Assembly: GCA_965215195.1 (NCBI GenBank)
Contig: CBDCDC010000002.1
Coordinates: 4,768,001-4,832,000, forward strand
Direction: 5' to 3'
DNA length: 64,000 nucleotides
DNA from: Candidatus Latescibacterota bacterium
GTDB lineage: Bacteria > Latescibacterota > UBA2968 > UBA8231
Made by a program: the position numbers and the translations under genes. The notes under the pieces are model-generated. The model was not told the origin of the DNA. It searched no databases and saw only the letters and a list, made by a program, of their open reading frames with translations. Numbering within the stretch: position 1 is the stretch's first letter; the number at the start of each line of letters is the position of its first letter. Of the stretch, positions 1-36,059 are shown in pieces.

Positions 1-1
1 C

Positions 2-673
2 TTGGCCGAGCGCATCATTTTCGGCTGGAGTCCAGTGACCAACATTTTGTATTTCATGGAGGAACGGTTCGACGACCTCTTTTACGGGACCATCGAAAAT
101 AATTTCGATACGGTTGAGGTAACCTTGGACTTCGACCACAGCGGCGACGCCATTTTCCAGAATGTCCAATCGGCGGATTTGGATCCGGAGAGGTGGGAAG
201 GGGCCCTATCCCAGAATTACCGCTACACGCTGCACCAAGAAAATCACATGTGGCTCTGGGGAGGAGCTCCATGGGCTGGAGTCGAGCCTTATTCTGGTGC
301 TAAATGGAGTTTTGAGGGTGATATCAACGGCGGTGCCGGGACCCTGTTCATGGAAATGTGGTTTACTCCCTTTGACGACCTGCCCACTAGCTCTACGGGC
401 ATAGAAGACGAAGATGTGATCGTCCACACTATGCAGGCAGGCGAAATCATGGGTATTGGTTTTGCCGTTCAGGACGATGACGACGGTGCCGAAGGTTCGT
501 ACAACGGCTACTGGACCAATAGCGGCGACACGGAAATCTATTTCAAAGCTACCGCTATGGTTGACTATGTCCTGCTCCCCTTTGATGAGAGCATCTGGGT
601 AGCGGGTGAAGACGTGGGAACTGCTGTCGAGTCGGATAGCTGGGGGAACATCAAGGCGAGTTTTTCCCGCTAA
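2..673 (+). CDS. 5'-truncated acidic secreted protein, CBM9/DOMON-like sugar-binding fold, with C-terminal 'TAVESDSWGNIKASF' motif
   Basis: Open from window edge; GEIMGIGFAVQDDDDG resembles CBM9-like domains; C-terminal AVExxSWGxIK motif; followed by terminator. Confidence 0.6.
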   Translation: MAERIIFGWSPVTNILYFMEERFDDLFYGTIENNFDTVEVTLDFDHSGDAIFQNVQSADLDPERWEGALSQNYRYTLHQENHMWLWGGAPWAGVEPYSGAKWSFEGDINGGAGTLFMEMWFTPFDDLPTSSTGIEDEDVIVHTMQAGEIMGIGFAVQDDDDGAEGSYNGYWTNSGDTEIYFKATAMVDYVLLPFDESIWVAGEDVGTAVESDSWGNIKASFSR

Positions 674-703
674 GGAGAACAAGTAAGAGAACATGAGCAG
701 TTC

Positions 704-733
704 GGGGGCGAGGTTATCTTCGCCCCCTTTTTT
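704..733 (+). terminator. Rho-independent terminator
   Basis: GGGGGCGAGG-TTAT-CTTCGCCCCC stem (one G-U pair) followed by T6, 30 nt after the ORF1 stop. Confidence 0.85.
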
Positions 734-757
734 AATAATTTTGCCAAAGGATTGGGC

Positions 758-2707
758 ATGCTTTCACCTAAGTCAATTGGGTTCCTGTTACTCGCGTTGC
801 TAGGTGTTGGTCTCTGCTCTCAAAATGTCTCCGGCGTGGTCATTTATAGAATTGGCACGCCTTTTTCAATATCAGAAAAAGACAGCCTTGAAGGTCTCGG
901 CATCGACTTCAGGGAAATCGACTGGTCGGCCTCCCAACTACAGGATGGCCTCGATCTGGACTCTTTGCCGACTGGTTCACTGCAACCTAACTACTTTGAT
1001 GAGGACGAAGACATCGCCGCGACCCTACTGAGCAGGGGTGGCTGGGTACGGGTGCGGCTTTTCGCCAATCAAAATCAACTTATTGGAGAGGTCTTGGTCG
1101 ATGGCGATCCGACTACAGCCCTCATGTGGCCAGCCGTAGCTCCAGAGAGCTTTCAGGTGGGCACGGCTCGGACCCTCAGTGAACAATTGACTTTTGATTT
1201 AGGCGGGCGATTTCTCATCCGGGAAGTGAGATTCCGCCCTCTGGCGGAAAAGCCAGAGCACTTTTTGGAGCGGCTCTCCATTGGCACTCTCGATAGGAGG
1301 TTGGTCAATATTGGCAACAGAATGTCCAATCTCCCGACCGTAGCCGAAGTAAAAGAAAATACCGAACCTGAAGTCAGCGTGATTTTAGACCCGCCGATAT
1401 CGACTCAAACGGTCCAATTACTGATTTTTCGCGACACCCCCAAGGAAATAGGGCTCGCCGATTTTGAACTCTACGGCGGTGGTTTCTTAGCCCGATCCTC
1501 GTATGAGTCCGAAGTAGTCGATCTAGGCAATCCGGCCAGTTGGGGCGAGATTCGCTGGTCGGGCCGGCAAGATACGGACGCCCGAATCGATATCCGCACC
1601 CGGACGGGAACAGACCCACATCCCGATATTTTTTGGCAGTTGCGACCCGAGCAGCGAGACAGCGTACAATTTCGCGATGGCGGTGGCGACTTGACCCTGA
1701 GCGAATACAAGCACCGCTACAGCAAGCTGCTCGATGTCCTCAAGCCGGTAGAACCCCGGGATAGAGTGAGCCCGGATACGGAAAACTGGAGTTTCTGGTC
1801 CAGTCCCTATCTATTTGAAAACTCGGGGACTAGCATCGTTTCCCCTAGTCCGCGCCAATTTTTACAACTCAAAGTAGATTTCTTTTCCACAGTCGAGGAT
1901 GGAGGCAAGATCGATTATGTCGAGTTTAAGGCCTCAGTTCCGCCGGCCGTGCATGGCCTGGTGGGAGAGATTTTCCCGGTGGATACCCAAGTGGGGCAAG
2001 CGACGCATTTCACTTACTTCATCCGGCCGACCATCCGGGCCGGCGACACGGGCTTTGACGGCGTGGAGATTTCCACGCCCTCGGGGGTGACTTCAGTCGA
2101 TTCGCTACGCATAGACGGCATCAACTACAACGACTTTATCTGGGCAAGAACCGCGGATGGCCTAGGTTTTGAGATCGGCTTTCCGCGCAAGCTGGAACCG
2201 ACCGACAGCGGGGCCCTGATCGAGGTGGTGTTCAACGCGCCAGTGCTGCGGGAAGTGGGCACACTGTTTACTGGTAAAGTGTTCAATAGCGCCGAGCCGA
2301 ACGAGGTGCGTCAACGCATCAACCCAGGCAATGCCGCCGACGAGATTGAGAGCGACGGGATTGCAGTGAAAACATCGCTGAGCAGTTCACTGGTATTTGC
2401 ACCGCAGATTGGTCCCAATCCCTTTACGCCCAACGGCGATGCCCTCAACGATGTGGTGCATATTTCCTATAAACTCTTGCGGGTGACATCTCAGATTCCC
2501 GTCTCGGTGGAAATTTTCGATTTGTCCGGCCGGCTAGTTAAGCAAATATACGCCGGGGACATTTCCATCGGAGAGTATTCTCACCCTTGGGATGGGACAG
2601 ACCACTCCAACCGGCTGGTATCCCCGGGACTCTACTTGTATCGAATAGCGGTAGACATCCAATCAGAAGAGGGCATCAAAGGCGGCGTTATCGCCGTGGC
2701 CTATTGA
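758..2707 (+). CDS. Secreted protein with discoidin-like region and C-terminal FlgD-Ig/gliding-motility (T9SS type B-like) domain, paralog 1
   Basis: Signal-peptide-like N-terminus; PNPFTPNGDALND...IFDLSGRLV...WDGTD...PGLY; ATG 758 preferred over TTG 752. Confidence 0.75.
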   Translation: MLSPKSIGFLLLALLGVGLCSQNVSGVVIYRIGTPFSISEKDSLEGLGIDFREIDWSASQLQDGLDLDSLPTGSLQPNYFDEDEDIAATLLSRGGWVRVRLFANQNQLIGEVLVDGDPTTALMWPAVAPESFQVGTARTLSEQLTFDLGGRFLIREVRFRPLAEKPEHFLERLSIGTLDRRLVNIGNRMSNLPTVAEVKENTEPEVSVILDPPISTQTVQLLIFRDTPKEIGLADFELYGGGFLARSSYESEVVDLGNPASWGEIRWSGRQDTDARIDIRTRTGTDPHPDIFWQLRPEQRDSVQFRDGGGDLTLSEYKHRYSKLLDVLKPVEPRDRVSPDTENWSFWSSPYLFENSGTSIVSPSPRQFLQLKVDFFSTVEDGGKIDYVEFKASVPPAVHGLVGEIFPVDTQVGQATHFTYFIRPTIRAGDTGFDGVEISTPSGVTSVDSLRIDGINYNDFIWARTADGLGFEIGFPRKLEPTDSGALIEVVFNAPVLREVGTLFTGKVFNSAEPNEVRQRINPGNAADEIESDGIAVKTSLSSSLVFAPQIGPNPFTPNGDALNDVVHISYKLLRVTSQIPVSVEIFDLSGRLVKQIYAGDISIGEYSHPWDGTDHSNRLVSPGLYLYRIAVDIQSEEGIKGGVIAVAY

Positions 2708-2754
2708 TTTTTAATCGCCCCTTAGGGGAGTAAATACGTGGGAGACCCAATGCC

Positions 2755-5394
2755 ATGGCATGGCAGAGAACATTCAAGCTGGTGAGCACTAGCTTGGTCT
2801 GTCTCTTAGGTAGGATGGTGGCTTGGGGGCAAGAGGGCTTTTCTATCCAAGACAGCGCGGCTGTCATCGAGTCTAGGGATCACTGGGCTCGTTGGCAGTC
2901 GGTGGCAAAGACCGTCCAGATCACCGCGGAGGGCGTAAAACCAGCTTTTATACGCAAAAGTACCCAGCTCGAAATAGATGGCGTTGAACAGGTAGTCCCC
3001 GGCATTAACGCGGTCTTGAATGCCTCCGAGTTCGGCGGCGGGATATGGGATGCCGGCTCCAATCGCTTGAGCGCAGACAACCTCATGGACGGCAGGATGG
3101 ACACCTACTGGGAGCCGGATACTTCTACCCCCCTTAGGGATTGGTGGGTGCAAATCGATTTAGGGCGGGCCGTATCAGCCAATAAGATCGTCCTCAAGTT
3201 TGTCGGGGAGGATTTGGGAGACCCCTTTCTCCAATTTAAGGTCCTCACCTCTCAGGGGGAGACGATCATCGGCCCGCTGGTGTACAGGAAACGCTTCTCA
3301 ACGAACAAGCCCATCAAGAATGAACGGGTCTTTGAAGTCGATCTGACCCGCCAGTTGCCCACCAAATGGACACAGGTGCGCGGGGATTTTACCGGCGATG
3401 TGATCCGGTTCGTCTCGGTCGGCGTCACGGACAGCGACTTTGGCAAGGCAAGACCTGTTTCCCAGTCCGCTTACGAGGGCCTCGACCCGGACCAACAGGG
3501 CGATATAGAGTACTTCCGCCGAGAAACCTCGGGAAGGCTGAGATTGTTGGAGGGACGCGAGGATTGGGAGGCCTTGGCCGGCGGAGACAGTCAGGGTCCT
3601 GTCGTCTACTATCGCCGCGAGTTGCCCCGATTGGCGGAAGTGGAAGTCTGGTCAATCGGCGACAATATCGGCATTGGCGTACTGGAGCGGGGTGGCAAGG
3701 TAACGAGTTGGGAAAACAACGGTGCTGAGGGTGTGGTGGTAGACGGAGTAATCTATAGTGTAGAAAAGGCGTTGTACTGGCCTGCTCAAGGGGGGTACAA
3801 TCCCGATAGGCTGCTGCCTTCGGAGCCACCCGATGTCGAGCGTGCCTTAGTGGTGGATCTGGGAGGGGCCTTCTTCTTAGACAATATCCGCGTACTCCAA
3901 GCCAGCAGTAGCCCCCCTGGGCCTTTTCGCGCCTACCGCATTGAAGTCTCGGATGGCTCCACCAACGCCGGCGGAAGTCTGGCCTGGCAAACAGTAGGGT
4001 CGATCGACCACATCAACGGAAATGAATCGTACCACGATTTTAAGTTTCCGCTCACCAAAGTCGAGCATTTTTCTTTTACCTATAAACTCCATGTAGGGGC
4101 CGGACGCCACGGCTTGTCAGAGATTCAGTTTTTCGGCGAGGGATACATGCCCAAGGCGCGGCTCGAATCGGTCTTTGACGGCCCTTCGGCGTTCATAGAA
4201 TTAGGGGCCACTCCCCAAAATTTGGCGTCTATAGAATGGGATGCGGATAGGCCGCCGGGCACGGATATTATTCTTCAGACCCGGACCGGCAATACGGTCA
4301 AAACTACTACGCTCTATTACAAAAAGAACGGTGAGTTGTTTCCGGGCACCGAAGAAGAAGCAGCGGAAGCGCACGCTACGGACAAAAAGTTCTTTGGGGA
4401 TGCCTCTGTTGGACCCGTCGTTACCCAGACCAACCCGGGCAGCGACTGGAGTGGTTGGAGTCAACGCTATTTTAATTCGGGAGACAAAATCACCTCGCCC
4501 AGTCCGCGTAAATTCGTCGCCATCCGAGCGACCTTTCTCACGGAAAATCCCCTCGTGGCGGCTACACTCCGTTGGGTAAAACTCAACTTTGTAACGCCAG
4601 TCGCCAAAACAGTTGTTGGCGAGGTGCTGCCCGCTCAACTCGAAGTGATTGGCGCTGAGCAATCGTTTTCCTATTTCATCCGCACGACTTTCGAGCCAAC
4701 CAACGAGGGCTTTGACGAGATTCTCATTGAAGCTCCCCCCGGCGTCAAAATGAAATTCAAGCAAGCCCATGTGGACCTCACAGGGCAGCCGACTCAAACC
4801 TATACCGCCCAAAGCGAGGGTTTTGAGGTCGTGTCTGATGATTCCGATTCGCTTTGGGTGCGTCTGCCTGTTCCCATCAAGGGGACCGACGGGGCTGCGT
4901 TGATCGAGCTTCAGTTCAAGGCGACCATATTTGATTTTACCACATTCTTCAATGGCTCTATCGGCCATTCTTCCATTCCCAATTCATGGCAAAGAGTGGA
5001 CCCGGGCGATGCAAACGAGATCACGGATAGCGAAAAAACCGTGATCTTGGCCCTTGAAAGAGGTGCAGTACTGGGGGATATCGAAGTCAAAAACAAAATC
5101 TTCACCCCGAATGGCGACGGCATCAATGATGATATGGCTGTGAGTCTTTCACTCATGCGGGTGGAGTCATCAACGCCGTTACAGATGCAAATATACGATC
5201 TAAGTGGGCGTCTCGTTCACCAACTGCGCGATGAGGACATAACCACGGGACGGCATTCCGCGGTCTGGACCGGAGTCGATAACTCCGGAGCTTTGGTGGC
5301 CCCTGGCATATATGTGCTGAGGATCAACATTAAGGTCGATTCAAAATCGAGTAGAAATACCTCGGACTACCGCTTAGTACATGTCTCCTATTGA
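2755..5394 (+). CDS. Secreted protein with F5/8 discoidin-like domains and C-terminal FlgD-Ig/T9SS type B-like domain, paralog 2
   Basis: NLMDGRMDTYW...WWVQIDLG (F5/8-like); IFTPNGDGIND...IYDLSGRLV...WTGVD...PGIY. Confidence 0.75.
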   Translation: MAWQRTFKLVSTSLVCLLGRMVAWGQEGFSIQDSAAVIESRDHWARWQSVAKTVQITAEGVKPAFIRKSTQLEIDGVEQVVPGINAVLNASEFGGGIWDAGSNRLSADNLMDGRMDTYWEPDTSTPLRDWWVQIDLGRAVSANKIVLKFVGEDLGDPFLQFKVLTSQGETIIGPLVYRKRFSTNKPIKNERVFEVDLTRQLPTKWTQVRGDFTGDVIRFVSVGVTDSDFGKARPVSQSAYEGLDPDQQGDIEYFRRETSGRLRLLEGREDWEALAGGDSQGPVVYYRRELPRLAEVEVWSIGDNIGIGVLERGGKVTSWENNGAEGVVVDGVIYSVEKALYWPAQGGYNPDRLLPSEPPDVERALVVDLGGAFFLDNIRVLQASSSPPGPFRAYRIEVSDGSTNAGGSLAWQTVGSIDHINGNESYHDFKFPLTKVEHFSFTYKLHVGAGRHGLSEIQFFGEGYMPKARLESVFDGPSAFIELGATPQNLASIEWDADRPPGTDIILQTRTGNTVKTTTLYYKKNGELFPGTEEEAAEAHATDKKFFGDASVGPVVTQTNPGSDWSGWSQRYFNSGDKITSPSPRKFVAIRATFLTENPLVAATLRWVKLNFVTPVAKTVVGEVLPAQLEVIGAEQSFSYFIRTTFEPTNEGFDEILIEAPPGVKMKFKQAHVDLTGQPTQTYTAQSEGFEVVSDDSDSLWVRLPVPIKGTDGAALIELQFKATIFDFTTFFNGSIGHSSIPNSWQRVDPGDANEITDSEKTVILALERGAVLGDIEVKNKIFTPNGDGINDDMAVSLSLMRVESSTPLQMQIYDLSGRLVHQLRDEDITTGRHSAVWTGVDNSGALVAPGIYVLRINIKVDSKSSRNTSDYRLVHVSY

Positions 5395-5419
5395 TCTTCT
5401 GCGATTCGCGAGGAACAGG

Positions 5420-7144
5420 TTGAACAAACCCCCGTTGCTCAAGACCGCGTTATTGGCGTTTTCTTGTCTATTGCAGGGACTTGCGCCGGCCCAAGGCTAT
5501 GGGGAGCCGATTGTCATTGGAGGCGGTCTAGGTACTCTAGCGTGGGATGGCCATTATTCCGAGATATCGGTTATCGATTTTGACGCCAATCCCGGCCAAA
5601 TTCAGCCGGCTCAGACAGGTCCCGAAGACAATATCGCCCTGAAGATATTTGAAAGAGGAGGGGCCGTAACATCGCCCAACGCGAGAATAGTACTCGAAAT
5701 ATCCCAGAGTCTTTTGAATGAACAATTGGCGCATATGGTGAGCGGCGATACGACTAGGGCCTTTGAAGTAAAGGGGGGTTCCCCTACAGGCGTCATATTT
5801 AGAATAGATTTGGGCGAGCGCTTGGGGGTCAATCGGATCAAATTTTTCCCTCGGAAGGGGTTTGAAGAGTTTCTCCTGAAAGGCTATGAACTGCTGCTGA
5901 ACGACGGCAGCGAGGAGCAGAAAACCCTAGCCGGGACGCCGGACTTCAAGGTTTTTAGAACCGAGGAACGCAACCTCGAGCCAACTGTTGACCTAGACGT
6001 TCCCCTGCAGTTTGTTCGTTTCATAGAGGTGAAGCAACTGGTGCGCGGAGAGTGGGAGATCGACGAATTTCAAGTCTTTGGTGCGGGTTTTGCCTCTACG
6101 GCATCATATACCTCAAGAGTATTTGCTCAGGAACAGCCCGCTATCTTTGGCGACATAACATGGGCTAGGGGGAGCATCGGCGAACCAACGAAAACGGATG
6201 CCATCCTATTGACTCGGAGTGGCAACACACCAGATCCCAGCGATTCGCTGTCTTGGAGCGCTTGGTCCTCCCCCTATCCTGCCGGAGTGCATACCGCTAT
6301 TGAATCACCAGCTCCGCGTCGTTTTTTTCAATTCCATTTACTCCTTAAGACCAGCGATATTCTAGCGGCGGCGACCGTTGACTCCCTCGCCTTTGAGGTG
6401 TCTCCTGCCCTAGCCGATTCGCTGGTGGGCGAGATATGGCCCCAAAATGCTATGATCGGGCAGAATACCTCCTTTACCTATGCCGTGAGAACCGTCAATA
6501 GCCGCGGCTTCAACCGGCTCGAACTAAAGACTATGGCACCGGTAGATGTAGTGCGCTCCGTGCAAATAGACGGGACCGATGTCGAATGGGAAAAGACGGA
6601 TACAGAGGACGGGGCCCAAATTAGCTTCCCCCGGATTGTGGGAAACCGCACCTTGCGAGTGGTCTTTGAGAACGTGGCTTTGCAGTACAATACTTTTTTT
6701 GCCGGCAGAGTCTCCGATAGCCAACAACCGGACAATCTGTCCCAAGTAGTCACCGAGGGAGATGCAGTCTCTGATTTCGCGGCGCAGGGGGATGACCTTT
6801 CGGTCGAGATCGCGGTGGGCAAAGACCTCATTCATTCCATGAAAGTGACTCCCGTTCCTTTTACTCCCAACGGCGATGGCCTAAATGATGAAGTTTTGGT
6901 GACCTACGACATCGTCAACCTGACAGGTGGTGCTTTGGTTGCGGTGGCGATATACGATCTTGCTGGAAGACGTATAAAGGAGATCTATTCAGGGTTGGCT
7001 CCCAGTAGGAGATACCAAAGGGCTTGGGATGGGACGGCTGAGAGCGGTGCCAAGGTGCTACCCGGAATCTATTTGATGCGAGTGGAAATTGATGCAGATT
7101 CAGGATTCGAGAGTAAGACGAAAATTGTCCCAATAGTCTATTGA
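5420..7144 (+). CDS. Secreted protein with C-terminal FlgD-Ig/T9SS type B-like domain, paralog 3
   Basis: PFTPNGDGLND...IYDLAGRRI...WDGT...PGIY; start probably TTG 5420 after GAGGA (ORF is open from 5381). Confidence 0.7.
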   Translation: MNKPPLLKTALLAFSCLLQGLAPAQGYGEPIVIGGGLGTLAWDGHYSEISVIDFDANPGQIQPAQTGPEDNIALKIFERGGAVTSPNARIVLEISQSLLNEQLAHMVSGDTTRAFEVKGGSPTGVIFRIDLGERLGVNRIKFFPRKGFEEFLLKGYELLLNDGSEEQKTLAGTPDFKVFRTEERNLEPTVDLDVPLQFVRFIEVKQLVRGEWEIDEFQVFGAGFASTASYTSRVFAQEQPAIFGDITWARGSIGEPTKTDAILLTRSGNTPDPSDSLSWSAWSSPYPAGVHTAIESPAPRRFFQFHLLLKTSDILAAATVDSLAFEVSPALADSLVGEIWPQNAMIGQNTSFTYAVRTVNSRGFNRLELKTMAPVDVVRSVQIDGTDVEWEKTDTEDGAQISFPRIVGNRTLRVVFENVALQYNTFFAGRVSDSQQPDNLSQVVTEGDAVSDFAAQGDDLSVEIAVGKDLIHSMKVTPVPFTPNGDGLNDEVLVTYDIVNLTGGALVAVAIYDLAGRRIKEIYSGLAPSRRYQRAWDGTAESGAKVLPGIYLMRVEIDADSGFESKTKIVPIVY

Positions 7145-7183
7145 TTATTCCCATTTTTATCTGAAAGCTAGGGTGGAACTATC

Positions 7184-9895
7184 ATGCTGACCTGCCATAT
7201 TTGCAGCAATGTAACGCGCGGTATTAGTCTAGCTACTATAGTTTGCTCCTTACTCTCGTCCACGTTAGCTTTCGACGCCGACGCACAAGCCCAAGATGTC
7301 GATCCGATGCGTATAAAAGGTGTGCGCCGAGGGGCGGAACTCACCTTTGAACCAACTGGATCCGGTGTGCTGTTTGGTGCCTTGGACCCGGCGGTCAAGA
7401 AGTGGTACGTACCGCAAGAACTTTTCCTAGAATACCGCTGGAAACAGTGGGAATACACCAACTACGCTAGGGATCACTACGACCGCTACGTGGATATCAA
7501 TTTAGCTGGGGATTATTTCTACGATATTTACGGTTCCTATATCACTAGGGGATGGTTGCTTTACGACTGGTCCCAGACGCAGCCACAGCAAGGGGGCAGC
7601 AATTTATTCAAGACCGAGAGATTCCAAAACTTTTTCAACAATTTGGTCATTGCCTCCGATCAGAAGGGGCAGCACAACTTGGCCATAACCATAGGCAATG
7701 AGATCCGTTCGACCCTTACCCCAATGACTTTCTCAAAACCAGCCTTGGACGGAATCCAGGTGGACTACCAAGCCGACAAATACCAAGTCACGACAATCCT
7801 TTCTCGGATCTCTGCCCCCGGCGGATCCGGTCCTCGCAACCCTGCGGTCAACCAAACGACTAGCCTGACAACGCTGATGGGTGGGCGGGCCGTGGCCCAA
7901 GTGGGCGATTTCATCAGCATCGGGGCCAACTATGTAAGTGCCCACAATTCCTTTCAACTCTTAGATGCCTTTGAAGGAACCCCCAGAAGTGGTTCGATCA
8001 CTTCTAGTCAAAACGCTGAAAATATCACCCAGCTTTTCGTCCGTCTGACCGACGATTCGCCCGAAGATAAAGAAGGCGGCGCTACCCTCTTCGCTTGGGA
8101 TATGATCATAGAGGCCGACGTCGAAATCATTGATGAAGAGGGGGAACGGGCGTTTAGTCGAGAGGTTGTCCGGGCCAGCGAGGCCGGTCTCAAGCCCTCG
8201 CCTCAGGGCGGCTTTCAGCGCTCGGGTTTCTGGGAAGCCAGCGGTTCTGAGCAGATCGAATTAGTATACGACTTTTCCGAGGGAACCTACACCGGCCCCG
8301 ACCCCTCGGAGATAAGAAAGGTGACTTTTGAACTAGTGGTTGCCAACGACTACAGAATCGAGCTGTCTTCGAACCGCCAGACTAACCGGCAAAACAGCAA
8401 CGTGTTTCTGCTAGCGGCCAGAGCCCAAGAAAACGTCAAAGATGGCTCCAATCTCAGAGTCCTCAAGATCCCGTACGGTTTGCCGACCGCCAGCGAAATT
8501 TTCGGTTTCACTCTGGAGGCGAACAATATTGCGGGTCTTGATTTTTACGGCGAATTCGACCGCAGTAGGAGTTACCGAAAATACCCCAACAGGCAGCATA
8601 CAAAACACCTGTCGGCTTTTGACCAAGGCGATGGCTGGATGTTGAATCTGTCGAGAACCGTCCAGCCATGGTTCTTTTTTGGCGAGGCTTACAGTATGGA
8701 CCACAATTATAATACAAGCGCTATCTTGGCCCGGGGCGAGGTCAACATAGATTACGAGGACCGGACGAGATTCTACTACGAACTCGTCGACGACAACGAC
8801 GATCAGGATCGCTACCCCGATTGGCAGAGGATAAACGAAAGCATCGACTTGAATGTATTCCCCGGCTTGGATGAAAACGTCGATTTTATCTCCGATTTTA
8901 ATCAGAACGACAGCGAAGATCTGCCCAACTTAGTGCCTGACTACAACGAGCCTTTTCTGCGCTATTCTACGGACCGACCCGAGTATCTGTTCGGCATAGA
9001 TATGAACAATAATATATGGGTAGACCGGTTCGAAAACGATGATGAAGCAGATTTTCCCTATGGTCGAGATTTAAGCGGGTACAATTTTTATGCGGGCATC
9101 AACATTACTCCAGAGATGAGGTTGACGATCGGCCGCACCGACGAAAGTCTCATTGCCGGTGATGGAGAAAATACCACCCATTATTTGCTTTTTACCCTAG
9201 AAAAGGACTATCCCGGCCTAGGAAGGGTGAGGATTTTTGAGAATTTTAGACTGGCCAAGGACAATATAGAGAATGACCTCCGCCAGTGGGACGAATTCGA
9301 GCGGCGAAACGTCCCTACCATTGACCCTCTGGCGGCCCGGAATACGTGGATAAATTCGTCCTATATAAGCTTCCGCTATACCAAGCTGAAGAATCTAAAT
9401 CTGATCAACAAGCTGAAATACGACCGCTGGCATCAAAGGGAAAGACAGCCCGACTTGCGACGCGACTTCGTCTTTGTGGGCCTGATCAATAAAGTGGACT
9501 ATGTCCTCAAATTCATTAATCTCGATATCCAGCCCAAAATTAAAAACGAATTGAGGATAGAGTCTCCAGCACTTAAAGCAAATCCCAAACGCAGGGAAGA
9601 CACCCTGATTTTTACTTTACTGGCCCGGTGGCCATTATTTAATAACTCCACGATGCAGGCAGGCGTGGAGTATACCGTTTTCCAGCAGCTCAGAGATGCG
9701 GATACAGCGGTCAAGGAAGGGCTGCTAGACGACTTCAGTGAAATTGTGGGGGCGGCCCAGTTCTCCAATAATTCAAACTACTTGGGCTACAGTTTGACGA
9801 CCCTGATGGGACTCAGGCTGACTAGAAGAGCCATCGACAACGAAACCGAAACGGGCAGAATGGCTTTTGCCACGGTATTTGCCGGCTTGGAGTAA
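7184..9895 (+). CDS. Large exported hypothetical protein, probable outer-membrane beta-barrel with Ca-binding-like DxDxD loops
   Basis: Signal peptide ending AQA; alternating hydrophobic strands in the C-terminal third, ending TVFAGLE; DDNDDQDRYPD, DENVDFISD and DMNNNIWVD motifs. Confidence 0.55.
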   Translation: MLTCHICSNVTRGISLATIVCSLLSSTLAFDADAQAQDVDPMRIKGVRRGAELTFEPTGSGVLFGALDPAVKKWYVPQELFLEYRWKQWEYTNYARDHYDRYVDINLAGDYFYDIYGSYITRGWLLYDWSQTQPQQGGSNLFKTERFQNFFNNLVIASDQKGQHNLAITIGNEIRSTLTPMTFSKPALDGIQVDYQADKYQVTTILSRISAPGGSGPRNPAVNQTTSLTTLMGGRAVAQVGDFISIGANYVSAHNSFQLLDAFEGTPRSGSITSSQNAENITQLFVRLTDDSPEDKEGGATLFAWDMIIEADVEIIDEEGERAFSREVVRASEAGLKPSPQGGFQRSGFWEASGSEQIELVYDFSEGTYTGPDPSEIRKVTFELVVANDYRIELSSNRQTNRQNSNVFLLAARAQENVKDGSNLRVLKIPYGLPTASEIFGFTLEANNIAGLDFYGEFDRSRSYRKYPNRQHTKHLSAFDQGDGWMLNLSRTVQPWFFFGEAYSMDHNYNTSAILARGEVNIDYEDRTRFYYELVDDNDDQDRYPDWQRINESIDLNVFPGLDENVDFISDFNQNDSEDLPNLVPDYNEPFLRYSTDRPEYLFGIDMNNNIWVDRFENDDEADFPYGRDLSGYNFYAGINITPEMRLTIGRTDESLIAGDGENTTHYLLFTLEKDYPGLGRVRIFENFRLAKDNIENDLRQWDEFERRNVPTIDPLAARNTWINSSYISFRYTKLKNLNLINKLKYDRWHQRERQPDLRRDFVFVGLINKVDYVLKFINLDIQPKIKNELRIESPALKANPKRREDTLIFTLLARWPLFNNSTMQAGVEYTVFQQLRDADTAVKEGLLDDFSEIVGAAQFSNNSNYLGYSLTTLMGLRLTRRAIDNETETGRMAFATVFAGLE

Positions 9896-9934
9896 TCTAC
9901 CCGTGCGCAGGAATGCAGAGGAGATATGAGCTAA

Positions 9935-11596
9935 ATGCCAAGGGAAATGACTGTATTTTGGCTTTTACCACTCGTGCTTTTTACCGTGCTCATGGGGTGC
10001 ACAGTGGAAATGGGAGACCGGGTCGTTGCTCAGATAGGTGATGAGGGGATAACGGTTGGCCAGTTGCGGAAATTTATCGCTGGCCTCCCCGAAGATGCCA
10101 AGGCCGAGCACACTAGGGTAGAAGAAGCGAGGAATCATTTGAACACCATGATCAACATCGAACTACTGATCATGGAGGCGAAGGCGGCCGATCTCGACGA
10201 AAGCCCTGAATTTCTCGCCCGGCTGGCAAACGCCCGGCGAGAAAAGTTAATCAGCATTTTCCAAGATAGAGCGCTGGAAGTAGAGGAGGAAGTGGAGGAG
10301 AGCGAAGTGCGGGAATACGCTGAACGCATGGGGCTCACTAGAGCGGTCAGGTTGGCCGATATAATGCTCCCCAGCCGAGAAAATGCCTTGGCCGCCCTCC
10401 GCGAACTCAAAAATGGGGTGCCTTTTGGGCAAGTCGCCAAGAAATGGTCCATAAACAAAAAAACCGCGGCCCAAGGTGGGGACTTGGGCCGCTATACCAC
10501 CCGAGAAAACATGATCGCGCCCCTTCAGGACAAGCTGTTTTCCCTCGCCTTGGGCGAAATCACCGAGCCCATAAAAATCGGTGGGCGCTATTCGATTTTC
10601 ACGGCCATCGCCGATTCTACCATCGAACTCAGTCCCCAGAGGAAACTGGCGATCGAAATGGGACTAAAAAAGGAGAAAAAGCAGCGGGCGCAATCAATTT
10701 TAGTCGCTGAACTCAAGGAAAAATACCACCTCGAATTGGATCGGGAGGGCCTCGCGCTCATTGCCGAAAAAGTGCGTGGCGGTACATCTTTTGCCCCGGA
10801 GACTGAGCGCAATATAGTGCTCTATCGGTACGACGGCGGAGAAATAACTGCTCAAGACTTGACAGAAGCTGGTCGCGATGCCCTAGCCCAACTTAGCGAC
10901 TCCAGCCAAGTGATCGCTTTTGCCGAGCGCCATGTCGTACCCAATGCAATGCTCTTGGAAGCGGCCCTGCGCACTGGCATAGACGAGGAAGCAGAGACGG
11001 TTGAGTGGTTGGAAAATCAGGCAACGCAACTTTTGATAAGGGCCCTCAGGGCGCAAGTCCTAAGAGCTAAAGTGACCATCGCTGAAAACGAGTTGCGCCA
11101 GTTTTACGAGGTCCATGCGGCAAGGTATCTGCACCCCGAGCAAATCGAAGTACAGGAGATTTTGGTAGAGACGGAGGCCGAGGCCCTGAGGTTGATGGAG
11201 CAGATCCAAAAGGGGAGCCCATTAGGCGATTTGGCCAAGAAGTACTCTATCCGGTCGCTAGCGGATCGGGATGAAGAGGGCCGATTCCACTTCCACCTTT
11301 TTGAAAAGGCCTTTTTTGGTGGTTTTGTAGAAGTCGCCGAAAAAGCCGAGATAGGAGCACTCACCGGTCCGGCCAAGGTCAATGAAGGTTATTCTATATT
11401 TAAGGTGCTTTCTAGGGAACGCAAGCGGGAGACTTTTGCGGAGGCCGAGTGGAGAGTCCGCTCCCAACTTAAAAGAGAAAAAAACAGAAAGGCCTTCAAT
11501 CAATTTATCGAAGAAGTGCGGAATAAATACGCAGCGAAAGTGGTTATTCGGGAGGATAACCTCAACGCCGCTTTCGGGGGGAATGAGGGCCCATAG
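9935..11596 (+). CDS. Lipoprotein peptidyl-prolyl isomerase (PrsA/SurA-like, two parvulin domains)
   Basis: Lipobox LMGC; FGQVAKKWS...GGDLG and LGDLAKKYS parvulin motifs. Confidence 0.85.
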   Translation: MPREMTVFWLLPLVLFTVLMGCTVEMGDRVVAQIGDEGITVGQLRKFIAGLPEDAKAEHTRVEEARNHLNTMINIELLIMEAKAADLDESPEFLARLANARREKLISIFQDRALEVEEEVEESEVREYAERMGLTRAVRLADIMLPSRENALAALRELKNGVPFGQVAKKWSINKKTAAQGGDLGRYTTRENMIAPLQDKLFSLALGEITEPIKIGGRYSIFTAIADSTIELSPQRKLAIEMGLKKEKKQRAQSILVAELKEKYHLELDREGLALIAEKVRGGTSFAPETERNIVLYRYDGGEITAQDLTEAGRDALAQLSDSSQVIAFAERHVVPNAMLLEAALRTGIDEEAETVEWLENQATQLLIRALRAQVLRAKVTIAENELRQFYEVHAARYLHPEQIEVQEILVETEAEALRLMEQIQKGSPLGDLAKKYSIRSLADRDEEGRFHFHLFEKAFFGGFVEVAEKAEIGALTGPAKVNEGYSIFKVLSRERKRETFAEAEWRVRSQLKREKNRKAFNQFIEEVRNKYAAKVVIREDNLNAAFGGNEGP

Positions 11597-11599
11597 GTT

Positions 11600-13291
11600 C
11601 TATTCTGCGTAGATGTTGGTCCCCATCTCCACAAAGGCGTAGGGGCCGTTTTGGCGGACTACCAGCAGCTTATTGGCCGGTGCCGATGGCACTGCCTGAC
11701 GAATGCCGTCGGGCCAAGCGATCTCCACTTCATCTGCCCTTTCCGCCCCACCTAGACCGAAGAAAATACGCATATCATTGTAGGAGAGATAGCTGGAAGC
11801 GCCGTTAGCCGTGCGCCACTGGAGTCGGCCGCCGGCCAGCAAACGGATCTTCGCACCGACGGCGTCGCGATTGGGGCCACGGCCCAGAAGTTGGACTACG
11901 AGCCAGTTGTTGGCGGGGGCAAAATCGTTGCGCAACAGAGTTGCTGCCTCATCTAAATTGACGACGAAAATGTCCATATCGCCGTCGTTGTCGTAGTCGC
12001 CGAAACTGGCACCGCGGCTGACTCGTTTAAGGTCCATTCCCGGGCCAGCCGCAGCCCCTATATCGATTAGACGGTCGCAACCTTCGTTGCGGATCAACTG
12101 GTTGCGCTGGGGATAGAAAGTGCTCGCAATAGTGCTAGCCACCTGCGGATAAACATGGCCGTTAGCGACGAATAGATCCAAGTCGCCGTCCCTGTCATAG
12201 TCGAAGAATTGGGTGCCCCACCCCAGCATCCCAAGCGTGGGTTCTTCTAGACCGATCTGGGCCGTTATATCTTTGAAATGGCCCTGCCCGTCGTTGCGGT
12301 AGAAGGTATTACTCTCGCGAAAAAAATGGGTTATATAGAGGTCGAGGTCACCGTCGGCGTCATAGTCCCCACCGCTGACCCCCATACCCGCCTCTTCTTC
12401 GCCGTATTCGTTATACGCGATGCCTGCTTTGAGGCCAATTTCGCTAAAGGTGCCATCGCGATTGTTGTCGAAGAGCACATTGGGGGTTGCGTCATTGGCC
12501 ACGAAGAGATCGGTGTCGCCATCGTTGTCGAAGTCTTCGGGCAGTACACCCAACCCATAATAGCGGTTGGCCCAAGAGATACCCGAGGGACGAGTGACGT
12601 CGGTGAAGGTATTGTCTCCGTTGTTGCGGTATAACAGGTCGGCAGCTCCAGGTAGGCCCTGGGGACCGCAGAAGATGTCGATTCCCTCGTAGGTGCAGAC
12701 CTTAGCCGGAGGGGAGTCAAAATCGTAGACGAGATAGTTGGCGACGTATAGGTCGAGATCGCCATCGCCATCGTAATCAAAAAAAGCGGCGCTGGAGCTA
12801 TAATCGTTCCCTGCTACCCCAGCGGAAATATCCACAAAGGTTCCGTTACCGCGGTTGCGGTAGAGGATATTGGGACCATAATTGGTCACGTAAAGATCGC
12901 GGTACCCATCGCCATCAATGTCGCCCACGGTGCAGCCCATGCCCCAACTGCGATCCCCGACGCCGGCTGGCAAGGCCACATTAGCAAAGGTGCCGTTACC
13001 TCGGTTGCGGTAGAGGACATTGCCCGGGCCGGATTTTTGGCGGTAGGTATTGACCGTAGCGCCGTTGACCGCGTATAGGTCGAGATCGCCATCGTTATCG
13101 TAGTCAAAAAAAGCAGCGCCGCCGCCGGAGGTTTCGACAATGTGCTTTTTCTCAGGTCCGCCAGCCACGTATTGGAAGGCGATGTGCGCCGCCGCCGTCT
13201 GGTCGGTGAATTGGGGTAGGACCGATTTCGGCAGCAGCACGGCCAGCACCAAGGCACAGGCAAGGGTCCGGTGCTGATAAAAAAAATCCAT
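11600..13291 (-). CDS. CRTAC1-family protein (FG-GAP/VCBS repeats + ASPIC/UnbV)
   Basis: Repeated DYDNDGDLDLY motifs; C-terminal NRDAVGA...SYLSYN...FFGLG; likely start ATG 13291 (ORF open to 13414). Confidence 0.9.
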   Translation of the reverse strand: MDFFYQHRTLACALVLAVLLPKSVLPQFTDQTAAAHIAFQYVAGGPEKKHIVETSGGGAAFFDYDNDGDLDLYAVNGATVNTYRQKSGPGNVLYRNRGNGTFANVALPAGVGDRSWGMGCTVGDIDGDGYRDLYVTNYGPNILYRNRGNGTFVDISAGVAGNDYSSSAAFFDYDGDGDLDLYVANYLVYDFDSPPAKVCTYEGIDIFCGPQGLPGAADLLYRNNGDNTFTDVTRPSGISWANRYYGLGVLPEDFDNDGDTDLFVANDATPNVLFDNNRDGTFSEIGLKAGIAYNEYGEEEAGMGVSGGDYDADGDLDLYITHFFRESNTFYRNDGQGHFKDITAQIGLEEPTLGMLGWGTQFFDYDRDGDLDLFVANGHVYPQVASTIASTFYPQRNQLIRNEGCDRLIDIGAAAGPGMDLKRVSRGASFGDYDNDGDMDIFVVNLDEAATLLRNDFAPANNWLVVQLLGRGPNRDAVGAKIRLLAGGRLQWRTANGASSYLSYNDMRIFFGLGGAERADEVEIAWPDGIRQAVPSAPANKLLVVRQNGPYAFVEMGTNIYAE

Positions 13292-13435
13292 ACACTCATC
13301 GCTGTAGAGGTGAACTAAGTAGATAATGGCCGCAATTATAGAAATTACCCTTTGCTGCGGCAAGGCCGGGGATCTTTGCGGCTTTTTTGCTAAAAAGTCA
13401 TATACGCTCGCCATTCATGGGTCCAGAGGTGCGGA

Positions 13436-14230
13436 ATGAGGCAGATTCTTGCCGCCCTAATGATGGGCATCACGTGCGCGGCCACAGGGCGATCTGAGAA
13501 CACTGTTGTGGAACTTCGCGCCGGAGCTGCGATGGAATTTGTGTGGATCGAGCGAGGTACTTTTCTGATGGGATCGCCGGCCTCAGCCTCCACACGCGGT
13601 GAAGACGAAGGCCCACAGCACGAGGTCTCGATAAGCAAGGGATTCTACTTGGGTAAATTTGAGATTACCCAGGCCCAATGGGTCGCGGTGATGGGGACAG
13701 CGCCGTGGACCCGGCGCAAGTACGTCCAAGCTGAACCGAATCACCCGGCCGTCTACATCTCGTGGATCGATATGCAGGAATTTCTCCGCCGCTTGAACGA
13801 AGCCGCCGACGGGAATTTGTACCGCCTGCCCACCGAAGCCGAGTGGGAATACGCCTGCCGGGCAGGGACCACGACGAGCCGTTCCTTCGCGGACGACGAA
13901 AGCCAGTTGGGCGAGTATGCGTGGTACATAGGGAACGTGGGTGAAGCGGGGGGGAAATTTGCCCAGCCGGTGGGTTCAAAGCAGCCGAATCCGTGGGGTC
14001 TGTACGATATGCACGGCAATGTATGGGAGTGGGTGCAAGATTGGTACAGCAACGCCTATTCAAGTGCCAAACAGATAGATCCTACAGGTGCTGCTTCGGG
14101 CTCTACCCGCGTTATGCGCGGAGGCGGCTTTGTCAACTACGCCCGCAACGTGCGATCAGCCAAACGCTTCAGCTTTGATCCGTCGCTCCGCTACTGTGCT
14201 ATTGGAGCACGCCTAGTAATGACAAAATGA
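13436..14230 (+). CDS. FGE-sulfatase (SUMF1)-fold protein
   Basis: FLMGS, RLPTEAEWEYACRAG, NPWGLYDMHGNVWEW, RGGGF; lacks the FGE catalytic Cys pair. Confidence 0.9.
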   Translation: MRQILAALMMGITCAATGRSENTVVELRAGAAMEFVWIERGTFLMGSPASASTRGEDEGPQHEVSISKGFYLGKFEITQAQWVAVMGTAPWTRRKYVQAEPNHPAVYISWIDMQEFLRRLNEAADGNLYRLPTEAEWEYACRAGTTTSRSFADDESQLGEYAWYIGNVGEAGGKFAQPVGSKQPNPWGLYDMHGNVWEWVQDWYSNAYSSAKQIDPTGAASGSTRVMRGGGFVNYARNVRSAKRFSFDPSLRYCAIGARLVMTK

Positions 14231-14305
14231 ACGGCCTCTCTTTGTCATTCAAACGGCTTATCCATTAGTTAAAATACGACATATAATAGCCCATAGAGAT
14301 GAACA

Positions 14306-34255: not shown

Positions 34256-35335
34256 ATGACTCTGACAAAAGTAAAATTGAGACGCTTTACTGCGTTCTCG
34301 AACTTGGAATTGGAGCTTTGCCCCGGCATTAACGTTTTAGTGGGTGCAAACGGCACAGGCAAGACCCATTTGATGAAGGTCCTATATGCGGCATGTGACT
34401 CTTCTAAAGCAGACGTCCACTTTGCCGAGAAGTTGATGCGGGTGTTACTTCCGTCGGGCCGCTTCCTAGGGCGACTAGTCAAACGGCAGCCGGGCAGTAC
34501 CAAGAGAGCCAAAGAAAACAAGGAAGCCAAGGAAATCCATGGCCTGATTGAGATATTAGCTAGCAGTCCGGTCGCATTCGTGGATGTGTATCGCGGCGAC
34601 CGGCGATTGAGAGTCCAGTTCTCCAATCGCATCAAATTACCAAATTCCGCCTACGTTTCTATAAGTGGTGCTGATTCTTGGAAAGATTCTTCATTAAAAA
34701 GTATCTATATTCCAGTGAAGGAGATGCTCTCTAACGCACCCGGCTTTCGCTCACTTTACTCGGAACGCGAAATTCACTTTGAAGAAATTTATGCGGACAT
34801 TCTGGACCGGGCTTACATCCCATTACTGCGCGGCAAATCGGATGCTTTACACAGGCGTTTGCTCACTCGTCTGCAAAAAGAGATCGACGGAAAAGTGATG
34901 ATCAAAAATGAGGAGTTTTTTCTAAAAAATAAAAAAGGAACCTTGGAGTTCACCCTGCTTGCTGAGGGCATGCGCAAGCTGGGATTGTTGTGGCTTTTAA
35001 TACAAAATGGCACTTTGCAGAGCGGCTCAGTACTGTTTTGGGATGAGCCTGAGACCAACCTGAACCCGAAGCTGTTAGGTACGCTAATTGATGTCCTGCT
35101 GCAACTGCAACGCGCTGGTGTTCAGGTATTCTTGGCGACCCACGATTACGTCATTCTCAAGGAGATTGATCTCCGTATACGCGATGAGGATGCGGTAGCC
35201 TTCCATTCATTTTACTTTGACGAGATGGGCGAGATAGCCTGTCACACGGCAAGTAACTATCTCGACATCCATCCCAACGCGATTGCGGATACCTTCACCG
35301 ATCTTTACAACCGGGAAATTGAGCGCGACCTATAA
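34256..35335 (+). CDS. ABC/AAA_21-type ATPase (defence/TA-associated)
   Basis: GANGTGKT Walker A, LAEGMRK signature, FWDEPETNLNP Walker B, ATHD H-loop. Confidence 0.88.
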   Translation: MTLTKVKLRRFTAFSNLELELCPGINVLVGANGTGKTHLMKVLYAACDSSKADVHFAEKLMRVLLPSGRFLGRLVKRQPGSTKRAKENKEAKEIHGLIEILASSPVAFVDVYRGDRRLRVQFSNRIKLPNSAYVSISGADSWKDSSLKSIYIPVKEMLSNAPGFRSLYSEREIHFEEIYADILDRAYIPLLRGKSDALHRRLLTRLQKEIDGKVMIKNEEFFLKNKKGTLEFTLLAEGMRKLGLLWLLIQNGTLQSGSVLFWDEPETNLNPKLLGTLIDVLLQLQRAGVQVFLATHDYVILKEIDLRIRDEDAVAFHSFYFDEMGEIACHTASNYLDIHPNAIADTFTDLYNREIERDL

Positions 35336-35856
35336 TGACCGTTCTTGAGGAAGGGGATCTGCAAATTACCATCGGCGACGCGATCAATGCGCGAAAGTTC
35401 GACGATGCCAACCACGGACTGAACAACTGTATGAAAGCGGTGGATTTCATCGTTGAGCTTCTTGACTGCTACCTGTTCATTGAAGTCAAAGACCCACAAG
35501 ATCCTCAGATACCTAAGCAAAGTCGCAACAACTTTCTTCGCAAAATTAAAAGCGGTGAGCTTGACGAGGATCTCAAATACAAGTACCGAGATTCCTTTCT
35601 CTACGAATGGGCGTCGGGCCGAGCCAACAAGCCCATTGACTACCTAGTACTGATTGCCATGGACGCCCTAGATAACGCCCTTTTACTGAATAGGACGGAA
35701 GATCTGAAGCGGAAGCTGCCCTTATTGGGACCGAGGGCACGTCCTTGGCCTCGCCCGACTGTTCGGAGTTGTGGCGTATTCAACATCGCGTCGTGGAGCA
35801 ACCGCTTCCCGCAGTATCCTATCAGGCGACAGAGTGCGGGAACGACGCATCCTTAA
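35335..35856 (+). CDS. Putative PD-(D/E)xK nuclease, partner of the ATPase
   Basis: KAVDFIVE...LFIEVKD; TAATG overlap with the ATPase. Confidence 0.65.
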   Translation: MTVLEEGDLQITIGDAINARKFDDANHGLNNCMKAVDFIVELLDCYLFIEVKDPQDPQIPKQSRNNFLRKIKSGELDEDLKYKYRDSFLYEWASGRANKPIDYLVLIAMDALDNALLLNRTEDLKRKLPLLGPRARPWPRPTVRSCGVFNIASWSNRFPQYPIRRQSAGTTHP

Positions 35857-35859
35857 TCG

Positions 35860-35917
35860 CCCGCGCCTGCGTGCTCCTCTTGGCGATCAAGCCGACGGTG
35901 CAGTTGTTTCAGTAGGG
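35860..35917 (+). repeat. Direct repeat copy 2: orphan duplicate of the SDR 3' end including its stop codon
   Basis: Encodes [17 protein letters not shown] versus [17 protein letters not shown]; begins 3 nt after the nuclease stop. Confidence 0.95.
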
Positions 35918-36059
35918 AGGGACAGTGGCGTCGGAGAAGATGCCGACTAAAGAGCGATACTGTACTATACTTGCTGAACGTTCTCTTGCGTCTAGAAGAA
36001 TTCCGCAAAGTAAAATTCGGTTGTGCATCGCCCTATGACAACGCAGACGAAGCCGATTG

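Follow-up and report, generated by a model that had tools for sequence, protein, structure and literature searches.

What is assembled from six exported proteins, encoded side by side in a bacterium outside the Bacteroidota, when three of them are paralogues with C-terminal domains (CTDs) resembling those of type IX secretion system (T9SS) cargo and a fourth is predicted to form a very large outer-membrane barrel? The question is raised by one end of a 64,000-nucleotide stretch of a Candidatus Latescibacterota genome (assembly GCA_965215195.1, contig CBDCDC010000002.1, positions 4,768,001 to 4,832,000), the whole of which is here called the window. Positions 2–11596 of the window hold six co-oriented open reading frames (ORFs) on the + strand, whose exported products are designated, in order, m (the 3′ end of its gene lying in the window), PA, PB, PC, B and P. 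The intergenic gaps are 39–78 bases, the start of PC overlaps the stop of PB by 14 bases, and a signal peptide is found at the N-terminus of all six proteins. This set of genes, referred to below as the cassette, is best explained as one copy of a multi-copy cell-surface module that is specific to one phylum. The mechanism that we prefer, at a probability of roughly one half, is that PA, PB and PC are type-B-like T9SS cargo and that a cognate giant barrel, B, holds them in place of the PorP/SprF barrels of known type B systems, with P as a private chaperone. What the cassette builds is probably a device for capture at the cell surface.

Three tailed paralogues and a large predicted barrel

PA (651 amino acids (aa); window 752–2707, + strand), PB (879 aa; 2755–5394, +) and PC (587 aa; 5381–7144, +) belong to classes 2, 4 and 1, respectively, of what is termed here the C family, class 4 being the large class. 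The initial annotation had described them as three paralogous CTD proteins with an ordered series of motifs, all ending in Tyr, a description with which both BLASTP and a three-way alignment agree. PA matches PC at 2e-60 (29% identity over 606 columns) and PB at 2e-48 (28% identity over 588 columns), and the invariant elements of the alignment of the three include TR.G, WS.WS, SP.PR.F, VGE..P, F.Y..R, GF, FTPNGD..ND, I.DL.GR, W.G and PG.Y as well as the Y at the end. Chance does not, therefore, account for the shared motifs, since the proteins are true paralogues by BLASTP and the motifs are found among the invariant columns of their alignment.

In terms of architecture, PA consists of a signal peptide, a discoidin-like domain, beta-sandwich domains and a type-B-like CTD that ends in VAY; the presence of the discoidin, or galactose-binding-like, domain is predicted from homology to PC and PB. 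PB has, besides the shared core and a type-B-like CTD (end VSY), a further F5/8 type C domain towards its N-terminus (residues 103–169), which is recognised by both PF00754 (42.4 bits; cut-off 28.2) and PF22633 (43.3 bits; cut-off 27.8). PC is a chain of beta-sandwich domains with a type-B-like CTD that ends in IVY; its AlphaFold2 (AF2) model is all-beta, with a mean predicted local distance difference test score (pLDDT) of 83.4, and the best Foldseek matches of this model are MAM-Ig-FN (8a1f_B, 4.9e-8), galactose oxidase (9g43_A, 2.1e-7), C5a peptidase and PorU. When a profile of the PC family is compared with the PDB, the tail matches FlgD (3osv, 1.1e-6) and residues 99–224 match CBM6 (2yb7, 3e-4). 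The tails of all three proteins pass the gathering cut-off of CHU_C (PF13585; 27 bits), at 33.6 bits for PA, 35.7 for PB and 27.5 for PC, as do five of the ten longest C paralogues.

The gene that follows (window 7184–9895, + strand) encodes B, a 903-aa protein with a signal peptide. It belongs to an unnamed family, in that no Pfam or NCBIfam family is matched at E ≤ 0.01, with PF11751, TIGR03519, plug/TonB_dep_Rec, Usher, POTRA and TPS among those covered. Homologues of B number more than 1104, those with a source name being called 'hypothetical protein', and the family amounts to 1007 representative clusters. The initial annotation had proposed that this protein is a barrel, and it does model as a large beta-barrel of the outer-membrane type, with AF2, Foldseek and VIA-align all giving that prediction. 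The AF2 model (mean pLDDT 65.8; predicted template modelling score 0.61) contains about 26–30 long strands within residues 154–902, and block means of pLDDT are mostly about 70–90 in the strand region (residues about 230–530 and 630–890). Two strongly conserved segments, at about 40–160 and about 537–626, are poorly modelled, the second of these being Asp/Asn-rich, acidic and nearly invariant.

Foldseek searches with the B model gave 76 matches at E ≤ 0.001, and all 50 of those listed are outer-membrane barrels; the best among the matches listed are LptD (3.2e-8) and SlpA/SDBC (the S-layer deinoxanthin-binding complex; 9e-8), with Mtr complex chain B, FimD, SusC, BtuB and SprA also appearing. 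With VIA-align, 50 barrel entries have Z-scores of 11.5–14.4, at the top of which is FimD (Z 14.4, root-mean-square deviation 6.0, 336 residues aligned), with SlpA at Z 12.1 (419 aligned) and LptD at Z 12.0 (343 aligned). FimD is, however, separated by no more than about 2 Z units from FhaC, TamA, CymA and Occ porins, and no Usher match is found in Pfam. Because the fold matches are tied in this way across unrelated families, no one barrel family can be said to be specific to B.

The SlpA/SDBC barrel of Deinococcus-Thermus deserves separate comment in this regard, since SlpA_C (PF21620; cut-off 35 bits) is the only Pfam family with recurrent weak similarity to relatives of B. Although B itself does not match it, 10 of 23 distant B relatives do so at 14–30 bits, and the three sub-threshold matches to it in the source genome all fall inside B paralogues. 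SlpA/SDBC entries also occupy Foldseek ranks 2, 4 and 5 for B and provide the longest structural alignment (the 419 residues mentioned above). Against any closer identification, the scores of the B relatives are all below 35 bits and involve only profile positions of about 200–308 out of 656, and B has neither an SLH domain nor a coiled coil.

The last gene of the cassette (window 9935–11596, + strand) encodes P, a 553-aa lipoprotein (lipobox LMGC) with two parvulin peptidyl-prolyl isomerase (PPIase) modules of the SurA/PrsA type, much as the initial annotation had it: Rotamase is matched at 65.7 bits (cut-off 21.7) in two stretches and Rotamase_2 at 61.4 bits, the NCBIfam equivalog scores all lying under their cut-offs. 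From these features P would be the private periplasmic chaperone of the cassette.

The combination of FimD as the top VIA-align match with a dedicated chaperone gene brings into consideration an autonomous platform of the chaperone-usher or two-partner kind, in which B would be the pore that secretes the C proteins and m into a surface fibre or coat, P would be the dedicated chaperone and the T9SS would have no part. The C-terminal strands of the C proteins (V-x-V-x-Y-COOH) and of m (TAVExxSWGxIKxxF) would then serve for recognition or strand complementation. Such a platform would accord with the Z-scores of FhaC and TamA (13.3–14.3) beside that of FimD, with the size of the barrel, and with a gene logic like that of a pilus operon, where a terminator comes after the first gene and where a chaperone, a barrel (about 900 aa) and subunits bearing lectin domains are encoded together; as in FimD/PapC and FimC/PapD systems, those subunits have a conserved Tyr-bearing C-terminal strand, in that a terminal Tyr follows an alternating hydrophobic strand on 122 of 128 C tails, and a PPIase gene is present at 26 of the 38 loci of the genome at which B genes occur. 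Yet neither Usher nor PapD family matches are found in the cassette, B matches none of Usher, POTRA and TPS at E ≤ 0.01, its fold matches are tied across unrelated barrels, and P is of the parvulin/SurA type and not of the PapD type. Moreover, the subunits are multi-domain proteins of 590–880 aa whose tails are homologous to T9SS/FlgD-type CTDs, and core genes of the T9SS are present in the genome. An autonomous platform is, on this balance, quite improbable.

Some further observations on the B family stand apart from these considerations. An identity as DUF6029, taken from the nearest named ESM Atlas cluster (0.88), was dropped because PF19494 matches a different gene in the source genome. 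Reduced-alphabet mean-field direct-coupling analysis of 336 B sequences (effective number 173), applied to strand ladders, was also discarded, with antiparallel and parallel counts equal and gap artefacts dominant. When PDB sequences were searched with profiles of the B family and of distant B relatives, no meaningful match was obtained, and longer fused forms of B were not found among proteins of 1582–4515 aa, which is weak evidence. Hypervariable patches are absent from the alignments of ten close orthologues, where mean column variability is 0.03–0.09 and is highest in P.

A recurrent cassette and its probable secretion route

The locus is not a single special one, as the cassette is one of about 38 per genome. 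In the source genome (6.13 Mb, 95.2% complete; written G000 in the coordinates that follow, with contig and position) 53 ORFs match B, 129 are similar to the C proteins along the greater part of their length and 33 match P at more than 80 bits. The 53 B genes are grouped in 38 loci, 34 of which have at least two C genes and 30 an ORF with the SWG-containing C-terminal tail found in m (see below), in addition to the 26 with a PPIase gene. Taken together, the coding sequence of the B and C genes comes to 434,691 bp and so fills 7.1% of the genome. Among these loci the order of the genes is permuted and their make-up is kept. Conservation of the order elsewhere, as had been expected, is seen in nine close orthologous loci (L017–L025), all of which are arranged m-C-C-C-B-P, and the composition is retained in most of 80 loci from other genomes. 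Orthologous loci with 93–96% identity come from genomes labelled Latescibacteria or Latescibacterota, plus one labelled Gemmatimonadetes.

The make-up of the cassettes follows a pattern. The 129 C proteins form a tree with five supported clades, PA falling in clade 2, PB in clade 4 and PC in clade 1. One member each of clades 1, 2 and 4 is present in 12 of the 42 cassette rows, and two of clade 0 with one of clade 4 in a further 8, the others being partial or derived from loci with tandem B genes. In other genomes, exactly classes 1, 2 and 4 are found at 50 of the 58 loci that have full 10-kb flanks; these 58 were the best matches to this subfamily of B, and it is therefore mainly the present type of cassette that is sampled by them. 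A different architecture is also seen, in which divergent B paralogues (22–29% identity to this B) occur as tandem pairs or triplets accompanied by clade-3 C proteins (G000:C1:173462-182111, C2:2518586-2529020, C2:3767890-3776704 and C2:1886094-1895964).

The tails of the C family are set apart from the other CTDs of the organism. There are 209 ORFs with a C-terminal CTD in the source genome, 128 in the C family and 81 others. The former have the consensus vfTPNGDGvND...iyDLaGR...WDGRD..G.lVpPGlYL...vaVAY, with PNGDGxxD in 93 and a final Tyr in 122, and 108 of them lie within 12 kb of a B gene. The latter, which are type-A-like and found on varied proteins, have the consensus YPNPFNP...LtiYnvLGQ.VR...WDGRD...VAsGVYlYrL...rKmtlL; none contains PNGDG, none ends in Y or F and six are near a B gene. 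When ten of these other proteins were taken at random, seven passed TIGR04183 (type A), the N-terminal regions of the ten including WD40/Big_1, MXAN_6640-type metalloprotease, LTD, FG-GAP, DUF3179, He_PIG and PorZ-like domains, and at E ≤ 0.001 the same model matched none of four C-family proteins tested. The type-B-like subtype of tail is, in short, confined to the C family in the source genome.

B and C genes also occur together across the phylum and diverge together. Among 121 genomes sampled from the phylum, B-type genes are present in 70 and PC-type genes in 58, and the two are distributed alike by family: each is found in all 40 genomes of family f1, in none of 29 of f2 and in none of 13 of f3, while f7 and f8 differ by one genome each. 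The main exception is f10, where distant B relatives alone are found (12 of 13 genomes) and the PC type is absent (0 of 13). Within cassettes, the distances between B proteins correlate with those between their large C partners (Mantel r = 0.896, a value reached by 0 of 2000 permutations; 21 cassettes), and it follows that cassettes diversify as units, a result which fits cognate partners but also plain co-inheritance.

Given that all of the evidence for linkage is genomic, it could be supposed that there is no complex at all, and that the genes are co-inherited neighbours, with B as a general porin and the C proteins as ordinary T9SS cargo. This we hold to be very improbable. Plain neighbourhood is difficult to reconcile with one member of each C class per B at 50 of the 58 loci, with a subtype of tail that is restricted to one family and mostly close to B genes, with the tight spacing and single overlap of the genes or with the strength of the B/C distance correlation; it would, moreover, be hard to explain why a cell should have 53 paralogous 'porins', each with its own set of lectins.

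By which route, then, do the C proteins reach the surface? That the locus is an alternative to type IX secretion is contradicted by the gene content of the organism. The source genome encodes a SprA over its cut-off (499 + 97 bits; G000:C1:253047-258179), a PorU over its cut-off (628.6 bits) adjoining a PorV-like gene that is under cut-off (147.6 bits; G000:C2:1738461-1742757) and a PorZ-like gene (G000:C2:1237573-1239765). With SprA, PorU, PorV-like and PorZ-like genes present, PA, PB and PC are therefore most simply T9SS cargo. The initial annotation had placed the system outside the Bacteroidota, as is correct for a member of the Latescibacterota, and no PorP/SprF family protein is detectable: TIGR03519 has no match in the source genome at E ≤ 0.01 and PF11751 none at E ≤ 0.1, control genomes likewise not being over cut-off with these models.

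Under the preferred mechanism, Sec would carry PA, PB and PC, each of a different ancient class, across the inner membrane, and the SurA-like lipoprotein P would keep them competent for export in the periplasm. The SprA translocon would then pass them through the outer membrane with the type-B-like CTD as signal, following which the uncleaved tails would be handed to B, on which they are expected to dock and by which they would be anchored. B would, in this manner, fill the role of carrier or anchor that the small PorP/SprF barrels have for type B cargo in Bacteroidota. The discoidin and CBM-type domains would face outwards and bind a glycan or glycoprotein ligand, m would be an abundant accessory binding subunit that joins by way of its own C-terminal tag, and the many diverged cassettes of the genome would afford many ligand specificities.

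Several features of known type B systems bear directly on this proposal. PMC9143113 describes type B cargo as binding PorP-like barrels for anchorage at the surface, PMC12618676 describes cargo and shuttle as cognate and often neighbouring pairs, and in PMC10994853 type B cargo is said to leave the SprA translocon on alternative carriers, the translocon itself having a PPIase subunit of unknown role. Compared with SprB-SprF, PG1035-PorP and Fjoh_3952-Fjoh_3951 (PMC9143113; PMC12618676), the cassette is similar in the beta-sandwich tail with its motif of the TPNGDGxND type that passes CHU_C, in the placing of the cargo genes beside the gene of an outer-membrane barrel, in the co-diversification of cargo and barrel and in the existence, in the same genome, of type-A-like cargo with a separate PorV/PorU route. 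It differs in that B has about 900 aa and about 26–30 strands, belongs to an unnamed family and is without a PorP/SprF signature; in having three cargo proteins per barrel, of three fixed classes; in tails that end in Tyr and fall below the TIGR04131 cut-off; in the inclusion of a private parvulin lipoprotein and a tail-tagged CBM9-like protein in the unit; and in its host, a member of the Latescibacterota with about 38 loci per genome.

A number of these and other observations weigh against the preferred mechanism. There is no sequence relation between B and PorP/SprF, B is about three times larger, and it would serve three cargo proteins where PorP/SprF serves one. The assignment of the tails to type B, which was made in the initial annotation, survives in part only: all three pass the gathering score of CHU_C, but all three miss the cut-off of the NCBIfam type B model (TIGR04131; 35 bits), with 27.6, 22.7 and 20.1 bits for PA, PB and PC, and they fit FlgD_ig as well as they do CHU_C, its gathering score being passed equally by the three (27.2–35.7 bits). 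Twenty of the 128 tailed C-family ORFs are more than 12 kb from any B gene. The search for sprA and por genes that the annotation had called for, although it found the four genes described above, did not detect GldM/PorM in the source genome and gave for GldK generic FGE-domain matches only, such that the T9SS may be non-canonical; the absence of GldM, GldK and PorP/SprF is itself weak evidence, because the control genomes also gave no match for these models. Nor does the presence of SprA discriminate, since it is near-universal in the phylum (116 of the 121 genomes sampled, including 40 of 40 in the family of the source genome) and extends to families that have no cassette. The B model is of moderate confidence, and its two most conserved segments, which are the likeliest functional sites, are not confidently modelled. 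Finally, co-diversification and co-occurrence are to be expected under simple co-inheritance too.

Accessory genes and flanking DNA

The gene for m (L097:12744-13673; 309 aa) starts at G000:C2:4767744, 257 bases upstream of the window, and its 3′ part, coding for 223 of the 309 aa, occupies window 2–673 on the + strand. The designation 'CBM9-like' that was given to this secreted protein is weakly backed. This copy has no Pfam or NCBIfam match, and a profile of the m family finds no meaningful match among PDB sequences; CBM9_1 (PF06452) is reached by 3 of 24 members of the family, with a best E of 3.9e-5. The mature N-terminus of m is predicted to be His, and the protein ends in the tail TAVESDSWGNIKASFSR (window 620–670). 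All 24 aligned members of the family have a His straight after the signal peptide (H26), as do 28 of the 34 paralogues of the source genome, and D51, D110, D129, H132 (in the motif DxDHSGG), E204, D244, D246, D274 and the tail are also invariant in the family. As a lead, the pattern suggests a metal site in m that makes use of the mature N-terminus, in the manner of a histidine brace.

The tail of m is not restricted to its own family. The pattern (T)AVExxSWGx[IVL]KxxF lies in the last 25 residues of 57 ORFs of the source genome, against 4.7 expected; the core motif is seen 71 times when all ORFs are counted, and 57 of these are the C-terminal cases. Of the 57, 34 belong to the m family and the other 23 fall into 19 groups, which include FGE-sulfatase, PD40, LTXXQ, Cache, HmuY, Fasciclin and WD40 proteins. 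From its spread over 19 further groups, the SWGxIK tail thus looks like a modular tag for sorting or docking. No NCBIfam model exists for it, and SWGRIK-type strings were not found in a literature search.

In the gap between m and PA there is an intrinsic-terminator-like hairpin (window 704–737, + strand), with a 10-bp stem of which 8 pairs are G-C, followed by TTTTTT. A hairpin and T-run come after 29 of the 57 SWG-tail ORFs. In the other gene sets this is less common, at 18 of 129 for the C genes, 10 of 53 for the B genes, 5 of 33 for the PPIase genes and 78 of 600 for ORFs taken at random. The hairpin between m and PA probably works as an attenuator, allowing an excess of m to be made. Contigs from RNA libraries, 90–95% alike in sequence, cover the locus (four libraries from three studies), the X16 records, for example, spanning 439–5727 and 6058–12000, and short m contigs are found at 10–100 times the word depth of their neighbours (2152 vs 200 and 22; 956 vs about 30; 276 vs about 6; 278 vs 14.5). 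Contig depth is a poor measure of expression and RNA libraries can contain DNA, and these figures give no more than a hint that m is made in excess. Loci of close relatives are present in both marine and sponge-labelled RNA libraries.

Beyond P, the window continues with an FG-GAP/ASPIC-UnbV protein (11600–13414, − strand; by Pfam), a secreted protein with an FGE-sulfatase domain that is a conserved neighbour of the cassette (13436–14230, +; by Pfam) and a polytopic membrane protein with DUF6785 and DUF6784 (14306–16294, +; Pfam, 419.5 and 102.6 bits). The first of these is a member of a single-linkage cluster of 120 TPR/FG-GAP/ASPIC-UnbV ORFs, which is represented in the flanks of 31 of the 38 loci; 65 of the 120 lie no more than 5 kb from a B or C gene, in a zone that makes up 16.8% of the genome. 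The DUF6785/6784 family has 46 copies, is present at 26 of the 38 loci and shows a moderate enrichment, with 18 of 46 copies within 5 kb of a B or C gene vs 7.7 expected. The nine close orthologous loci keep the whole stretch from the ASPIC to the DUF6785 gene. It is possible that the DUF6785/6784 protein is an inner-membrane partner of the cassette; in comparison with the PDB it gave a match at chance level, and no literature on DUF6785/PF20581 was found.

Such a neighbour invites comparison with the polysaccharide utilisation loci (PULs) of SusC/SusD type, in which case B would chiefly be a substrate channel, the C lectins and m would capture a polymer and the DUF6785/6784 protein would import the product. 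This role in uptake would be compatible with anchoring by the T9SS. With its 38 loci, which take up 7.1% of the genome, the cassette family is expanded on a scale like that of SusCD in Bacteroidota, and the two share a barrel of about 900–1000 aa with surface binding proteins beside it. Domains of carbohydrate-binding type are also present (the F5/8 type C domain of PB, the CBM6-type region and galactose-oxidase-like fold of PC, and CBM9_1 in three of 24 m relatives), as are sulfatase and FGE genes nearby, and the enrichment of the DUF6785 family points the same way. That enrichment is modest, however, and an opposite-strand gene stands between the DUF6785 gene and the operon. B has no plug or signature of a TonB-dependent receptor, and the cassette has no TonB box, TonB/ExbBD genes, SusD-type lipoprotein or regulator, nor, at this locus, any glycoside hydrolase, lyase or other enzyme of the PUL kind; SusC is only at rank 22 among the listed generic barrel matches that Foldseek gives for B. 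We accordingly regard uptake in the manner of a PUL as unlikely.

A bolder synthesis can be drawn, although as a whole it is doubtful. The cassette might be a self-contained envelope machine specific to the phylum, the Latescibacterota counterpart of a PUL, in which giant calcium-loop barrels would assemble a fixed hetero-trimer of lectins and conduct the captured material, a new sorting tag would serve 57 proteins of about 20 families, and a histidine-brace-like site formed by His1 and His132 of m would provide oxidative or metal-dependent chemistry at the surface.

Other features of the surroundings were noted. A family of 259-aa lipoproteins with no Pfam or NCBIfam match (examples at G000:C2:271843-272619 and C2:1889057-1889836) has 20 copies; none is at this locus, and 18 lie no more than 5 kb from a B or C gene. 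The extended module (window 1–16000) coincides with a tract of low G+C of about 22 kb (about G000:C2:4,762,000-4,784,000), with a G+C fraction of 0.50–0.57 vs 0.60–0.65 in the flanks, and this B gene has the lowest G+C at third codon positions of the 53 B genes (0.604 vs a mean of 0.764, standard deviation 0.056); a recent transfer out of a relative of lower G+C and a different codon usage are both possible origins. At two loci in other genomes (L030 and L034) the flanking genes are 90% (DUF6785) and 93–95% (the next gene) identical, vs 48–73% for the cassette genes, a pattern that suggests replacement of the cassette, or faster evolution, at a fixed chromosomal site.

Farther along the window, two defence islands are found. 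The first (34256–45158) has an ATPase of the HEC-02A type, an ATPase of the HEC-01A/mad3 type, an ankyrin-repeat protein, a 1265-aa SIR2 protein of the Dsr1 type (− strand) and SoFic, and the second (52640–61356, − strand) has a type III restriction-modification pair, a cyclase of a cyclic-oligonucleotide-based anti-phage signalling system (CBASS) with a patatin phospholipase effector, and an RmrA/capP-like M78-HTH (helix-turn-helix) protein. Rfam and tRNA scans of the window gave no matches.

Meaning for surface sorting in Latescibacterota

To our knowledge, type IX secretion and its carriers have been worked out almost entirely in Bacteroidota. A literature search did not find the module described in print, nor any paper that joins Latescibacter* with type IX secretion, with outer membrane/T9SS or with FlgD, and the available text of a paper on sponge-associated Latescibacterota genomes (PMC12993501) makes no mention of a secretion system, type IX, outer membrane or adhesi*. 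What is new here is the census of the genome, the three-class rule, the partition of the tails, and the N-terminal His of m together with the SWGxIK tag. Neither Pfam nor NCBIfam has a model for the B family, the m family or the SWGxIK tail, and the present data could serve to define all three.

For the organism itself, the picture is of a genome with a translocon and a type A route in which no PorP/SprF was found, and in which 128 cargo proteins of the type-B-like kind are linked to 53 barrels whose family is unnamed. From the fixed three-class make-up of the cassette, a defined hetero-oligomer is predicted. If the B barrels are carriers or anchors, type B sorting would have a second and much larger solution, and the purpose of about 7% of the genome in a widespread uncultured lineage would be explained.

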